15,909 nt of DNA from a virus (UHGV-1808406), one strand, 5' to 3'; shown: positions 1,549-6,163, counted from the stretch's first letter. Numbers and translations are program-made. Notes: generated from the sequence alone by a model not told the origin.

Positions 1549-2517
1549 TTATTTCAGAAGAGTAACCTCAGCGATTTCTTCCCAACCGTTTTTGTCGGTC
1601 ATAATAAAGTCAGCAAGATAAAGTGCAGTACGCAGTGAAACATTGCGTAAACGGTTAACATTGACTTTCATCCATGATAATGCTTTATAAGTTTCTTCAT
1701 CAGAAAGACCGCGCTTTTGCATCATGTCGGTTGAAAGAATAACATCTTCAACCCTGACCATAATTTCTTCATTAGTGTGAACACCCAAATCTAAATAAAC
1801 TGAGCGGGACACTAATGCTTGTAAATGTGGAGCAAGTTTAGTACCACGGTCTAATTCGCGGTCAATATCAACGTTTGTGATAAAAACAATCGTTCCTTTA
1901 AATTCAAACTCACGCTCAATGCCTTTTTCTTCTAAGTAAGAAGATGCAGTGCTCCAGCAGACTTTACGGGTCTCTCCAGTGTCCAGAGCAGCTTTCAGAA
2001 GATTAAGAATGTCCATATCAGAGAAAACATCCACATCATCAATCAAAAGGACAGAATTCTCTTCACGATTATTCCAGAGCTGTTCATAAAGACCGATACC
2101 AGAGATTTTACCATTAATGCTTTTATACTCAATGTATCCAATATCATTTGCTTTATTTAAAGCTTTATCTAAAGAATACGTTTTACCAATACCTGCCGCA
2201 CCAGAGATAATTAATGAACGAATATTTCCGTTAATAATACCATTCGTCATCATTCCCATAACATTAAATCTTTTATTAATGCGGGTTTTCATATCTTCAT
2301 ATGATTCTTTAACTTCTTCAACTTTTACACCATCATATGAAATGTCTGATTTGTAAACCCAAACACCGCGACGTTTACCGTCAATTTCAACAAAAACTTT
2401 ACCATCTCCTTGTGCATCTACTGGTGCATTATCAGGGAACCATTCACCTAAGAACTCAAAAGTTCCAGAGATTTCTTTACCGAAGTAGATACCCTTATTG
2501 ATAGTTACAGTTTTCAT
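1549..2517 (-). CDS. P-loop ATPase, AAA+-like, about 322 aa, with an N-terminal domain of unknown function of roughly 110 aa
   Basis: Walker A GAAGIGKT (in ISGAAGIGKTYSL), Walker B LLIDDVD, sensor-1-like FITNVD. Start revised to ATG at 2517 (MKTVTINKG...) with a GGAGAAT Shine-Dalgarno; the track's N-terminal 22 aa are a translation of the promoter module. Confidence 0.7.
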   Translation of the reverse strand: MKTVTINKGIYFGKEISGTFEFLGEWFPDNAPVDAQGDGKVFVEIDGKRRGVWVYKSDISYDGVKVEEVKESYEDMKTRINKRFNVMGMMTNGIINGNIRSLIISGAAGIGKTYSLDKALNKANDIGYIEYKSINGKISGIGLYEQLWNNREENSVLLIDDVDVFSDMDILNLLKAALDTGETRKVCWSTASSYLEEKGIEREFEFKGTIVFITNVDIDRELDRGTKLAPHLQALVSRSVYLDLGVHTNEEIMVRVEDVILSTDMMQKRGLSDEETYKALSWMKVNVNRLRNVSLRTALYLADFIMTDKNGWEEIAEVTLLK

Positions 2518-2551
2518 TTTATTCTCCAAATCCGTATCAGTTGATAGTTGT

Positions 2552-2580
2552 ATAGTACCATAAAGCTTTATGCTTGTAAA
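2552..2580 (-). promoter_or_regulatory. T4-type early promoter: -35 TTTACA, 17-bp spacer, -10 TACTAT
   Basis: Minus strand reads gttgTTTACAagcataaagctttatggTACTATacaactatcaac, immediately upstream of the ATPase gene and downstream of the terminator at 2605-2629. Confidence 0.65.
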
Positions 2581-2604
2581 CAACTTTGTGAAAAATTTTT
2601 GAAA

Positions 2605-2629
2605 TAAAAAAGGGAGCCCGAAGGCTCCC
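2605..2629 (-). terminator. Rho-independent terminator on the minus-strand transcript
   Basis: Perfect 7-bp GC-rich stem GGGAGCC/GGCTCCC with a CGAA (minus: UUCG) tetraloop, followed on the minus strand by a U-run (plus-strand taaaaaa). It lies 3 nt after the stop of the nucleotidyltransferase gene. Confidence 0.8.
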
Positions 2630-2631
2630 TA

Positions 2632-3645
2632 TCATTTATAATAACTTCGGTGGTTTTCAAGATAGACCTTCTCAAGGAAGTCATCCCAGAAACTCATGTC
2701 TACTTTTTGCTGCATACCGTTCTTAGAAGCTTCAGTAGATGCTGCTTCTACTTGATCGACCACATCTTCCAAAAACTCTTGAACCGTTTTAAATGGATGT
2801 TTACCCAACTTCACGTCGAGAATAAATGGAGCGTCTTGAAGTGGATAAATCAAGTCGCCAGTTTTGTAAATTTCCAATAGTTGAAGTCCACCACGACAAG
2901 CATGACTCAGAGCTTTCCAGTCAATACCTTCATTGGCTTCAGCCTTACGAGCACGTTCACCATATTCAGCATCTAATTTGTTCAGTGACTGCTTAAGCTC
3001 AATAAGAGAAAGCGTTGTCTGATATTTACGACCCAACACAGTGTAGAACGTTTGTGGGCCTGTTTTCTCATGATTATGGAACACCCATTCACAGAATTCG
3101 TTTTCTGGAAGACGATGCTTAATATCTTCAACTTTAGTGCGACGCTGCTTAATAGAACCATCTTCTTGGTAATCAACCCATTGCTCAGGGATTTGATTAA
3201 CTACTTTCAATACATCACGTAATGCAGCCAAACGAGAACCCTTGACACCGTATTTAGAAGCTTGCTTACGGACATATCCTAAATATGATTTCATGTTAGT
3301 CGTATAAAAACGAGAACGGTTGTCTTGAATAAACTTCCACACATCAGGCAAATCAGATTTAACCACTAGTTCAGGTGGAGTGTGAAGCATATCTAATGCT
3401 ACAGTTTCACCATCTGCTGCTAATTTAAAGAAATATTTAAGACTGTATAGTTCATGGTCAATATCATCTTTAGTGTTTTTAGATGATGTGTTGTTAGTGT
3501 TTTTACTCATGTGCTCTTTGACATTTCCGATAAGAATATCGCGAGCAGGAGGAACAAAGATTTCTTTAAAATCTACATCAGATTCTGGGGTAGAAGTTCC
3601 ATAAAGATGACTACCAAAATAGCTTTTCATTACTGTTTTCATCAT
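2632..3645 (-). CDS. Pol-beta-superfamily nucleotidyltransferase, 337 aa, substrate unknown
   Basis: N-terminal motif G11-S12-x10-D23-V-D25 (GSHLYGTSTPESDVDF) fits the hG[GS]x9-13Dh[DE] signature. A further acidic cluster DDIDHE at 60-65 is a candidate third carboxylate. The ATG overlaps the upstream stop as ATGA. Confidence 0.7.
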   Translation of the reverse strand: MMKTVMKSYFGSHLYGTSTPESDVDFKEIFVPPARDILIGNVKEHMSKNTNNTSSKNTKDDIDHELYSLKYFFKLAADGETVALDMLHTPPELVVKSDLPDVWKFIQDNRSRFYTTNMKSYLGYVRKQASKYGVKGSRLAALRDVLKVVNQIPEQWVDYQEDGSIKQRRTKVEDIKHRLPENEFCEWVFHNHEKTGPQTFYTVLGRKYQTTLSLIELKQSLNKLDAEYGERARKAEANEGIDWKALSHACRGGLQLLEIYKTGDLIYPLQDAPFILDVKLGKHPFKTVQEFLEDVVDQVEAASTEASKNGMQQKVDMSFWDDFLEKVYLENHRSYYK

Positions 3646-4115
3646 TCAGCCTTATATTCAATAACAGGACATACTTTAGCTTTACGAGCTTTTAAAAATT
3701 CAACGATAATCGATTTCTTGGGTTGAATAGGAGGTAAACCTTTATACGCCCTATCAATATTTTCTATGTGTAAAGCATAATCCTTTTTCCATTTATAATC
3801 TTTATATTTTTCATGCAAATGTGCAGGAATAACAAATGAACCAATAATAAGTAAAACAAGCAAAATGGCAAGTATAAATGCTGATGGAATAAGAGTCCAT
3901 AAACTACCAAAAATAAGCCATTTCTGTATGATTTCTGCGCAGATGATAGTTAGACCTGCGAGTATAGTACATCCGAAAAAAGAAACGAAAAATGTAGGGA
4001 TAACAATAGACCAAAAGTATGCACACAGTGTCTTAGGTCGTTTCCATTCGTCGTTAAACAGTTTGAATAATTTATAGTGCCAAGAGTTTTCATTAATAAC
4101 CATAATTATAATCAT
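3642..4115 (-). CDS. Small membrane protein, 157 aa, 2-3 predicted transmembrane helices
   Basis: Hydrophobic segments FWSIVIPTFFVSFFGCTILAGLTIICAEI and LWTLIPSAFILAILLVLLIIGSFVI. ATGA overlaps with both neighbouring genes indicate translational coupling. Confidence 0.6.
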   Translation of the reverse strand: MIIIMVINENSWHYKLFKLFNDEWKRPKTLCAYFWSIVIPTFFVSFFGCTILAGLTIICAEIIQKWLIFGSLWTLIPSAFILAILLVLLIIGSFVIPAHLHEKYKDYKWKKDYALHIENIDRAYKGLPPIQPKKSIIVEFLKARKAKVCPVIEYKAE

Positions 4116-4633
4116 CCTTTCATTGAAGGTGTAACGTATGTTAAATACTTAATCATAGCCTCAGCTTCTGATTTTGACAATGAAATTTCTTCACCGTTTT
4201 GGCGAATAGAAACAAAATCTGGATGACGGTCACCGCCAGCCTTTAAAACACACATGTAAGTATCAACTTCGCCTTCAATATTTGAAATGATTGAAGCAGT
4301 TCCACATGAATGTGGTTGTTGATAAACTAATACAGCTTTTCTTCCACCGTTTGACTGTTCATAAACTTTTAACACATCAAACAAATCACTTCTTTTATCA
4401 ATAGCTAAGATGTTGTTTTCATCTTCAATATTAAATCCTTCGGATACTTCATAAAGTGTCACCCATAAATCACCAATATCAATAACAGCGTTCACTTTTC
4501 CATGACTTTCAAGAGCATTACAAATTTTCTTAATTTCATCATAACTCATTTTAATAATATCATCTCCTTGAATAAGGAAGATGTCATTTTTAAATTCAAC
4601 ACGAATTAAACCACTTCCACTTGAAATAAACAT
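4112..4633 (-). CDS. Hypothetical protein, 173 aa, paralogous to the upstream gene
   Basis: Its C-terminus SIRQ...SKSEAEAMIKYLTYVTPSM aligns with TIRQ...TKDEAIALKTYLDSVIPTM of 4640-5197, and both contain GFNI. A GAGG Shine-Dalgarno overlaps the upstream stop. Confidence 0.6.
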   Translation of the reverse strand: MFISSGSGLIRVEFKNDIFLIQGDDIIKMSYDEIKKICNALESHGKVNAVIDIGDLWVTLYEVSEGFNIEDENNILAIDKRSDLFDVLKVYEQSNGGRKAVLVYQQPHSCGTASIISNIEGEVDTYMCVLKAGGDRHPDFVSIRQNGEEISLSKSEAEAMIKYLTYVTPSMKG

Positions 4634-4639
4634 ATTTCC

Positions 4640-5197
4640 TCACTTTGAAATCATAGTTGGAATGACAGAATCAAGATAAGTCTTTAGCGCAATAGCTTCG
4701 TCTTTGGTAAATGTGACAATATGTGATCGAAAATCGTCAATTTGGCGAATAGTTAAGACATCTCCATCTTCATAACATTTTGATACGTTTAAAACAGTTT
4801 CATCATTCTGACTGCAAGCGTTAGTAATAATAGCATTGCAATTTTTAAGCCATTTTAAACTATGTTTTCTTTCATTAGAATAATAAAAATATTTAATCTT
4901 ATCTATAAAACTATCCCAATGGATAACTGATAAACACATTGACTCACTTTTAATATTAAATCCTGGGCATGAAGAATAAAAATGAACTTTATTCTCATCA
5001 TTGATGCTTACAATTTTATCAGTATAAGAATTTTCAATTTGGGTTAAATGAATAATTTCGTTAGGCGTAAAATATAGCATATCGTCTTCTTGTGTCAAAC
5101 GATACATATTATTTACTTTTTCTATAGCCAATTCACCAAAAAGTGAACTAACTTCTAATACTAATCGTTTCATATTGATTCTCTTCGACTCACTCAC
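4640..5197 (-). CDS. Hypothetical protein, 185 aa, paralogous to 4112-4633
   Basis: Possible GTG start at 5197 with an AAGGAG Shine-Dalgarno 9 nt upstream, or ATG at 5173. Conserved C-terminal segment shared with the neighbouring gene. Confidence 0.55.
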   Translation of the reverse strand: MSESKRINMKRLVLEVSSLFGELAIEKVNNMYRLTQEDDMLYFTPNEIIHLTQIENSYTDKIVSINDENKVHFYSSCPGFNIKSESMCLSVIHWDSFIDKIKYFYYSNERKHSLKWLKNCNAIITNACSQNDETVLNVSKCYEDGDVLTIRQIDDFRSHIVTFTKDEAIALKTYLDSVIPTMISK

Positions 5198-5199
5198 AA

Positions 5200-5304
5200 T
5201 TACATACTCCTTTGAATAATATCAATAATGTTGTTCACCAGATTATAAGTAAACATTGGGTAATTATATTGAATCATCACATACACAACAAACAAAACTT
5301 TCAT
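5200..5304 (-). CDS. Possible micro-ORF, 34 aa hydrophobic leader peptide (MKVLFVVYVMIQYNYPMF...)
   Basis: An AAGGAGAAGAGA Shine-Dalgarno precedes the ATG at 5304. It is the first ORF after the promoter at 5333-5361, and its stop overlaps the Shine-Dalgarno of the next gene. Confidence 0.3.
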   Translation of the reverse strand: MKVLFVVYVMIQYNYPMFTYNLVNNIIDIIQRSM

Positions 5305-5332
5305 TCTCTTCTCCTTAACAGTTGACAAGATT

Positions 5333-5361
5333 ACTATAACATAACCTTGCCAACTTGTAAA
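5333..5361 (-). promoter_or_regulatory. T4-type early promoter: -35 TTTACA, 17-bp spacer, -10 TATAGT
   Basis: Minus strand reads tggTTTACAagttggcaaggttatgtTATAGTaatc. It heads the operon that runs from 5304 to the terminator at 2605-2629. Confidence 0.55.
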
Positions 5362-5364
5362 CCA

Positions 5365-5538
5365 TTAAATGGTGTTTTCAATAAAATTCTGAAGCTTTGT
5401 GTGAGCATCAACCATGATTTTCATTTCTTCCTTTGCGAAAGCTGTACCTCTTTCTCGAGCAGAATACTCATAGTCAGAAACTGCATTAGCATATTCTTCA
5501 ATTAGCTTCATTAAAAACATCTGCTTTTCAGTTTTCAT
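5365..5538 (-). CDS. Small ORF, 57 aa, absent from the 60-aa ORF track
   Basis: ATG at 5538 is preceded by an AGGTGGAA Shine-Dalgarno 3-4 nt after the upstream stop. Translation: MKTEKQMFLMKLIEEYANAVSDYEYSAREGTAFAKEEMKIMVDAHTKLQNFIENTI. Confidence 0.4.
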   Translation of the reverse strand: MKTEKQMFLMKLIEEYANAVSDYEYSARERGTAFAKEEMKIMVDAHTKLQNFIENTI

Positions 5539-6123: not shown

Positions 6124-6152
6124 ATAGTATCACAGTTCAAATGGAAAGTAAA
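6124..6152 (-). promoter_or_regulatory. T4-type early promoter: -35 GTTTAC, 17-bp spacer, -10 TACTAT
   Basis: Minus strand reads ccgGTTTACtttccatttgaactgtgaTACTATacaactatcgg, directly downstream of the terminator at 6164-6185. Confidence 0.65.
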
Positions 6153-6163
6153 CCGGTAAAATG

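Follow-up and report, generated by a model that had tools for sequence, protein, structure and literature searches.

UHGV-1808406 is a stretch of viral DNA of 15,909 nucleotides (nt), referred to here as the window, and all positions given below are those of the whole stretch. On its minus strand, at 2605-5362, lies a block of five tightly joined open reading frames (ORFs) between a T4-type early promoter and a UUCG-loop terminator. The last of these ORFs encodes a nucleotidyltransferase (NTase) of 337 amino acids (aa) orthologous to NrdC.11 of phage T4. Profile comparisons and genomic context indicate that NrdC.11 is a divergent RlaP subfamily, often paired by bacteria with canonical RlaP. 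By analogy with characterised RlaP enzymes, nrdC.11 is probably an RNA-repair counter-defence gene and not a new signalling module. An original prediction, made from the sequence alone, had described an early-type, tightly packed unit ending in a Pol-beta-fold NTase with an intact active site, and this description holds. Its suggestion of counter-defence is retained as a plausible role, without the nucleotide signalling that was proposed along with it.

The sequence of the 337-aa protein, YFGSHLYGTSTPESDVDF, contains the motifs G11-S12 and D23-x-D25. Residues 7-135 match PF10127 (‘RlaP, RNA repair pathway DNA polymerase beta family’) with E 1.7e-11 and a score of 44.7 bits, the curated cut-off being 23, and the PHROGs label for it is nucleotidyltransferase. 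A search of 1.84 billion representative proteins returned 825 clusters with E <1e-30, nearly all of them full length. The query was aligned with 46 relatives that are 34-54% identical to it, and G11, S12, G16, S22, D23, D25, D63, K244, H248 and R251 are invariant across the 47 sequences, all of which match PF10127 and no other family. The G-S motif and the three acidic residues of a Pol-beta active site are thereby accounted for by G11, S12, D23, D25 and D63.

In the AlphaFold2 model (predicted local distance difference test, pLDDT, 93.9) an NTase domain and a helical C-terminal domain can be told apart, together with a beta-rich insert (about residues 153-210); the helical domain ends in a long helix at 317-336. 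The crystal structure of PfRlaP has been described as an N-terminal NTase domain and a C-terminal helical domain whose last helix packs on the NTase domain (PMC12776372), and in its two domains and long terminal helix the NrdC.11 model agrees with the published account, the comparison being by description only. Common to NrdC.11 and canonical RlaP are the Pol-beta NTase core, the GS motif with three catalytic aspartates and, as modelled, a helical domain at the C terminus. In contrast to canonical RlaP, NrdC.11 is about 70 residues longer, carries the beta-rich insert and has a divergent C-terminal half. When a profile of the NrdC.11 clade was compared by hhalign with the canonical RlaP proteins encoded next to its members, the alignment had a probability of 92% (E 6.5e-7) but covered only 170 columns, so that NrdC.11 is best regarded as a divergent subfamily of RlaP. 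No relevant PDB chain was found when all of them were searched with the enzyme, as a single sequence and as a profile, and Foldseek of the model against the PDB gave weak matches at the superfamily level (E 4e-3 or worse). NCBIfam and PADLOC gave zero matches for any of six proteins. The placement among Pol-beta families that was originally called for leads to RlaP (PF10127), and a reading as a CD-NTase of the CBASS type was discarded because of what profiles and fold show.

Because the Pfam match covers the N-terminal 135 residues only, the neighbourhoods of full-length NrdC.11-like proteins were examined independently. With one genome scanned for each prokaryotic species, 80 bacterial and archaeal loci (L084-L163) were obtained, many of them on megabase-sized chromosomal contigs, with enzymes 32-53% identical over the whole protein. 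At 78 of these loci the four genes on each side were clustered, and cluster representatives were compared with Pfam. A canonical full-length RlaP (274 bits) is encoded directly downstream on the same strand in 17 of the 78. Other RNA-repair neighbours are Pnkp with its kinase, phosphatase and ligase domains (7/78), RtcB (4/78), Ro60 with TROVE and vWA domains (4/78) and Hen1 (3/78), and at least one of canonical RlaP, Pnkp, Hen1, RtcB and Ro60 stands beside the enzyme in 26 loci. The tandem of NrdC.11-like and canonical RlaP genes is sometimes found inside Pnkp/Hen1 or RtcB/Ro60 operons. The two-RlaP arrangement may reflect a division of labour or a complex between the two enzymes.

Two Pseudomonas RlaP enzymes, from P. 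fluorescens and P. aeruginosa, were characterised by Carruthers, Fatma and Huang (bioRxiv, December 2025; PMC12776372). They favour Mn2+ and add one or two nucleoside monophosphates (NMP, or dNMP) to the 3'-OH of RNA, whereas DNA and protein are not substrates (PMC12776372). On a nicked tRNA mimic they extend the 5' half at its 3' end in preference to the acceptor end, and RlaP partly restores the aminoacylation of a repaired tRNA that is short of one anticodon-loop nucleotide (PMC12776372). A role as an antidote to ‘smart’ ribotoxins such as RloC, by which the tRNA is cut and a nucleotide then excised, has been proposed, and T4 NrdC.11 was named as a member of the family (sequence similarity network cluster 5; PMC12776372). 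An earlier comparative study predicted that phage RlaP and RNA ligases restore the nucleotides excised by RloC (PMC7824862). Furthermore, T4 deletions reaching from nrdC.11 to mobD.3 are viable (PMC9825161), as expected for an accessory counter-defence gene.

In the mechanism that we propose, two metal ions would be bound by D23, D25 and D63, and NrdC.11 would extend the 3'-OH of broken RNA by one or two nucleotides without a template. The leading candidate for its substrate would be a tRNA whose anticodon loop has been cut and then trimmed by a ‘smart’ RloC-type host anticodon nuclease. The phage Pnkp and Rnl1 would then heal and seal the ends, full-length tRNA would be regenerated, and nrdC.11 would belong to the tRNA-repair counter-defence of T4 as an accessory arm. 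The T4 repair enzymes fit the chemistry of RlaP, as the ends left by Pnkp are 3'-OH and the ligase Rnl1 is of the 5'-phosphate type. The likeliest mechanism is that trimmed tRNA ends gain one or two untemplated nucleotides ahead of repair by Pnkp and Rnl1, and we hold it to be rather probable because of the family membership, the intact active site and the RNA-repair neighbourhoods of the bacterial homologues. The RNA substrate, the RloC-type target and the cooperation with Pnkp and Rnl1 are suggested by analogy with Pseudomonas RlaP.

The distribution of the enzyme among phages is compatible with this mechanism. Records of Rnl1 and of NrdC.11 are nearly equal in number for each host genus (Escherichia 637/609, Klebsiella 287/286, Shigella 83/83, Aeromonas 77/75, Acinetobacter 69/69), which would fit a co-distribution of the two genes and is no proof of it. 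Canonical RlaP is found in 80 phage records, none of them T4-like, for example in phiKZ-like jumbo phages, whereas T4-like phages carry the NrdC.11 type only. Unlike canonical RlaP, the NrdC.11 type stands alone in T-even phages, with no adjoining ligase.

Several observations weigh against RNA repair as the function of the phage enzyme. No RNA-repair gene lies within the window, and the association with such genes is found among bacterial homologues of the same clade, of which 52 of the 78 loci have no recognisable RNA-repair neighbour within four genes. Distant phage loci, with an enzyme at most 50% identical, were scanned for ligase and kinase genes and have NAD-salvage (nicotinamide adenine dinucleotide), DNA methylase and replication genes instead, so that the phage context does not itself support RNA repair. 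The near-equal numbers of Rnl1 and NrdC.11 records may just reflect the spread of both genes in T4-like phages. The Pfam match is limited to residues 7-135, and that by hhalign ends near residue 182. Only this clade has the beta insert and most of the C-terminal half, so that the substrate could differ from that of canonical RlaP. The NAD-salvage neighbours of the distant phage loci lie within 3 kb of the enzyme (L045, L047, L056, L059, L060 and others), with four ORFs for NAMPT/NAPRTase and two to three for NMNAT-Nudix.

NrdC.11 might also act on RNA 3' ends with a different purpose, such as the repair or completion of the CCA end of phage or host tRNA, or the tailing of host RNA during takeover. 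The characterised RlaP extends any RNA 3'-OH with little NTP specificity and labels full-length tRNA and rRNA-sized species (PMC12776372), no ligase is encoded near the phage enzyme, and other large phages carry dedicated CCA-adding enzymes for the restoration of ends (PMC7824862). However, the nicked 5' half is the favoured substrate over the acceptor end (PMC12776372), and the company kept by the bacterial homologues of the clade, Pnkp/Hen1, RtcB and Ro60, is that of break repair and not of CCA maintenance. We consider a role in CCA repair or tailing unlikely.

Transfer of a nucleotide to a protein or small molecule, as by adenylyltransferases of the MNT/HEPN, KNTase, DrrA or GlnE kind, for example to inactivate a host toxin or factor, is less probable still. 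The architecture of NrdC.11, in which a minimal NTase is joined to a HEPN-like helical domain, is that of KNTase, but the fold scores are low and reflect the common superfamily core, and sequence profiles place the enzyme in PF10127 only. Pseudomonas RlaP labelled neither E. coli proteins nor DNA (PMC12776372), and the genomic contexts point to RNA repair.

The block itself is not new. As judged by homology it is the catalogued T-even unit mobD.2 – mobD.1 – mobD.1 paralog – membrane protein – nrdC.11, in which nrdC.11, at the end, is the best conserved, and the window is a Tequatrovirus. A 3-kb region of it matches 761 phage records, the best at about 97% identity. The ORFs, promoter and terminator of the original prediction are all present on the minus strand where it had placed them, and the minus strand carries every coding ORF of 2600-5400. 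The features of the block and its surroundings are as follows.

5333-5362, minus strand: early promoter of mobD.2, with a GTTTACA -35 element, a 17-nt spacer and a TG-n-TATAGT extended -10 element.
5200-5304, minus strand: mobD.2 orthologue, 34 aa, preceded by an AAGGAG Shine-Dalgarno sequence (ORF and T4 orthology).
4640-5173 or 4640-5197, minus strand: mobD.1 orthologue (y05I family), 177 or 185 aa.
4112-4633, minus strand: second y05I-family paralog, 173 aa (PF24449, 120 bits; PF24448, 80 bits).
3642-4115, minus strand: membrane protein, 157 aa (hydropathy; phrog_944 ‘membrane protein’, E 2e-49).
2632-3645, minus strand: nrdC.11 orthologue, 337-aa RlaP-family (PF10127) Pol-beta-type nucleotidyltransferase.
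2605-2630, minus strand: intrinsic terminator with an 8-bp G+C-rich stem, a UUCG tetraloop and a T-run.
1549-2581, minus strand: nrdC.10 orthologue, AAA-type ATPase, ATG at 2517 (phrog_1250; weak AAA_14/AAA_22 matches).
6124-6153, minus strand: upstream early promoter of the mobD.5-mobD.2a unit (promoter scan, GTTTAC family).

It had been stated that none of the five products matches a T4 function that could be named, whereas three of the five are orthologous to genes in the T4 reference annotation (MobD.2 91% identical, MobD.1 83%, NrdC.11 98.5%). The position of the block in the mobD/nrdC plasticity zone of T4 had been recognised correctly. With the T4 unit mobD.2–mobD.1–mobD–nrdC.11 (NrdC.11, NP_049709) the window has these genes, their order, the early promoter and the terminator in common. 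The enzyme is 100% identical to a protein of Yersinia phage PST, and the mobD.2 ORF matches phrog_3515 (E 4e-22), with copies that are 53-62% identical in other genera.

The two units differ in that the place of the second y05I paralog and the membrane gene is taken in T4 by the HNH homing-endonuclease gene mobD. The location of mobD between mobD.1 and nrdC.11 in T4 has been reported before (PMC2988022). A scar was found when T4 (L002, 13195-13300) was compared with the window (4600-4660). Just past the mobD.1 stop, T4 still has the second paralog's Shine-Dalgarno sequence and its initial 19 nt (ATGTTTATTTCAAGTGGAA), from where it diverges into mobD. This 19-nt remnant indicates that a mobD cassette replaced the paralog and the membrane gene in T4. 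The window arrangement is the ancestral, T2-type form without mobD, and with about 430 of about 500 Tequatrovirus records holding both the paralog and the membrane gene it is also the common one.

Since the original prediction took an NTase and a membrane partner for a signalling module, the linkage of the five genes was of particular interest. T4 lacks the paralog and the membrane gene and retains the enzyme at 98.5% identity. A natural variant (L008, 5820-7014) has lost mobD.2a, mobD.2, mobD.1, the paralog and the membrane gene; mobD.3 abuts nrdC.11 there, the 5362-type promoter is gone and the enzyme is 97% identical. In another locus (L012, 4776-6001) a mobD homologue, 79% identical to that of T4, lies between nrdC.11 and a membrane gene that has been kept. 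In Karamvirus, Winklervirus and Gelderlandvirus the genes for the membrane protein and the enzyme have one to three unrelated ORFs between them, and no homologue of the membrane gene or of nrdC.10 was detectable in phages whose enzyme is at most 50% identical. Presence and absence, mapped as counts of phage records, do not trace one obligate module: the enzyme is found in 1518 records (500 at ≥90% identity), the membrane gene in 894 (423 at ≥80%) and the second paralog in 462 (434 at ≥80%), and about 600 NTase-bearing records are without a detectable homologue of the membrane gene.

These distributions indicate that the five genes are not one obligate machine and that the enzyme can occur without the upstream genes, the two paralogs and the membrane gene being accessory neighbours of nrdC.11 and not obligate partners. 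The reading of the membrane protein as an obligate partner was rejected, as the membrane gene is missing from T4, L008, the distant phages and the neighbourhoods of the bacterial homologues.

These distributions also bear on whether the NTase makes a nucleotide or oligonucleotide signal for a co-transcribed membrane protein, in the manner of Hailong or CBASS, the five genes forming one module for superinfection exclusion or acting as a decoy against Hailong-type guards. Hailong couples an NTase of this kind to a membrane effector (PMC13434031); its HalB (PDB 9dbh/9dbj) makes oligodeoxyadenylate and gates the membrane channel HalA. A membrane-protein gene is adjacent in Hailong as in the window block, where the membrane gene and nrdC.11 overlap by ATGA, and the two genes adjoin in Tequatrovirus- and Mosigvirus-type loci in general. 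However, the replacement of the membrane gene by mobD in T4, the loss of all four upstream block genes in L008, the unrelated ORFs that intervene in other genera and the excess of NTase records over membrane-gene records speak against such a module, as do bacterial homologues that neighbour RNA-repair genes and not membrane genes. PADLOC matches none of the proteins, and there is no sequence-level link to HalB: HalB and NrdC.11 are 17% identical with no sequence-profile link, and HalB, at 217 aa, is without the insert and the large helical domain. Unlike in Hailong, the membrane gene of the window is small and phages that have lost it keep the enzyme, and the block is encoded by a phage and is not a host defence gene. 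The hallmark of Hailong, a HalB-type NTase tied to an adjacent HalA channel, is thus not found here, and we regard a signalling module as very improbable.

RNA repair by NrdC.11, as the preferred explanation, would extend a familiar conflict. Repair of tRNA by T4 Pnkp and Rnl1 is the textbook case of a phage reversing a host suicide nuclease, and RloC-type nucleases are thought to defeat it through excision of the wobble nucleotide. Were NrdC.11 to put that nucleotide back, it would form a third layer of the tRNA arms race in T-even phages. The gene is conserved across the 1518 phage records yet dispensable in the laboratory, which makes the idea directly testable. The annotation of the locus, the enzyme family, its predicted role, the biochemistry of the family and the naming of T4 NrdC.11 are already known, and with the repair hypothesis in the literature the window adds no new kind of system. 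What is added is independent genomic support, namely the occurrence of the NrdC.11 clade in bacterial RNA-repair operons, often in tandem with canonical RlaP, and evidence for the separability of the upstream genes from the enzyme. Two further additions, treated below, are a predicted Pur-alpha/Whirly-like fold for the uncharacterised MobD.1/y05I family and the finding that a gene for the y05I C-terminal domain and the membrane gene are a conserved pair.

The signals of the block are those of a T4 early transcription unit, with a -35 element, a 17-nt spacer, a TAnnnT -10 element with TG and an intrinsic terminator all present in the sequence. TTTACA-17-TATAGT spans 5361-5333 with 10 of 12 promoter matches and TG before the -10 element. 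A generic sigma-70 scan showed no enrichment over shuffles (35 found, 35.5 expected), and the support for the 5362 promoter therefore comes from its position, its family resemblance and its near-identity to the T4 promoter. The pattern GTTTAC-N16-19-TAnnnT occurs at eight minus-strand sites in the window, seven of them 25-50 nt upstream of minus-strand ORF starts, and at one plus-strand site, within a gene. The minus-strand members of this family, at 1142, 2581, 5362, 6153, 10365, 13457, 14137 and 15386, are closely alike in sequence (…GTTTAC…TGTGGTACTATACAACTATC…). Strict searches of the block for T4 late (TATAAATA) and MotA-box middle promoters found none.

The terminator hairpin, AGGGAGCC-TTCG-GGCTCCCT, lies at 2630-2611 and is followed by a T-run. 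A terminator scan found nine such sites against 3.2 expected. The TTCG-loop terminator is kept 3' of nrdC.11 in Tequatrovirus- and Mosigvirus-type loci, and across relatives the stem varies in a compensatory manner with the loop unchanged (AGGGAGCC/GGCTCCCT, AAAGGCC/GGCCTTT, AAGGAACC/GGTTCCTT, AAGGACCC/GGGTCCTT). One promoter and one terminator do bracket the block, as originally described, but it is not strictly a one-promoter unit. The sole minus-strand terminator of the upstream interval, at 6186-6169, lies immediately upstream of the 6153 promoter, and as there is no terminator between the promoters at 6153 and 5362, read-through into the block is likely.

The junctions are of the ATGA or Shine-Dalgarno-over-stop type, as had been described. 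In gene order they are TAA-TT-GTG, TGA within the Shine-Dalgarno sequence GAGG, ATGA and ATGA. The first of these concerns the GTG start of mobD.1 at 5197 (185 aa), 2 nt past the mobD.2 stop; the alternative start is the ATG at 5173 (177 aa). A fixed stoichiometry had been read from these junctions. Tight junctions are the norm in this genome: of 24 junctions in Sf21, an annotated relative, 17 are overlaps or gaps of at most 12 nt. As evidence of a stoichiometric complex they are weak, and the inference of a fixed stoichiometry was rejected.

The two middle proteins are paralogous, as predicted, being 29% identical over 176 aa (E 6e-9), and both match the Pfam domains T4_y05I_N and T4_y05I_C (‘y05I-like putative transcription factor’ domains). 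The family comprises 39 clusters among 5.8 billion proteins and is confined to T4-like phages. The model of MobD.1, with an overall pLDDT of 77, is built of three beta-beta-beta-beta-alpha repeats, for which the values are 85-92 (first and second) and 62-78 (third). The closest folds are those of Pur-alpha, which likewise has three such repeats, and of Whirly, MRP1-MRP2 and PC4, all of them binders of single-stranded DNA or RNA; the likeness is at the level of the fold only, with 6-9% identity and moderate model confidence in the third repeat. The y05I paralogs are therefore best described as putative, probable single-strand nucleic-acid binders, a function that the predicted fold suggests. 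Pur-alpha dimerises through its third repeat. The third repeat is also the best-conserved part between the two y05I paralogs, which makes homo- or heterodimerisation of the y05I proteins through this repeat a reasonable suggestion. Metagenome clusters include a natural chimera (P0291) whose N-terminal two-thirds are those of MobD.1 and whose remaining third is that of the second paralog, a sign that the tandem paralogs recombine. Literature searches on mobD.1, y05I and nrdC.10 found no functional work.

Two long stretches of the membrane protein, roughly residues 30-64 and 66-100, are hydrophobic, and its last 55 aa or so form a basic tail. Basic residues flank both stretches, and the predicted topology is two, possibly four, transmembrane helices with both ends cytoplasmic. 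Among the phage loci L001-L083, the ORF ending at the start of the membrane gene carries a y05I C-terminal domain in 37 of 49 cases, either as a full-length protein of 173-186 aa or as a stand-alone one of 65-87 aa. The conserved coupled pair is consequently y05I_C with the membrane protein and not the membrane protein with the enzyme. This pair is better conserved than the adjacency of the membrane gene and nrdC.11.

There is one further reading of the block, in which NrdC.11 would be a HalB-like template-independent polymerase that, with the PUR-fold y05I proteins and the membrane protein, makes or handles a single-stranded oligonucleotide at the membrane. Were this so, oligodeoxyadenylate might be replenished to silence Hailong-type guards, or the phage membrane protein might be gated, and the block would represent a new type of phage module for counter-defence or exclusion. 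We rate this reading very improbable.

Downstream of the block, nrdC.10 has its own early promoter (2581-2552). It is 99% identical to T4 nrdC.10 and has weak AAA_14/nSTAND-like matches. In most Tevenvirinae loci it follows nrdC.11 at about 0.1-3.3 kb, and it is absent from this position in more distant phages and in bacteria. Public annotations of relatives contain misleading names, NrdC.11 often being called ‘thioredoxin’ or ‘HNH homing endonuclease’ and MobD.1 ‘molybdopterin-guanine dinucleotide biosynthesis protein MobD’.

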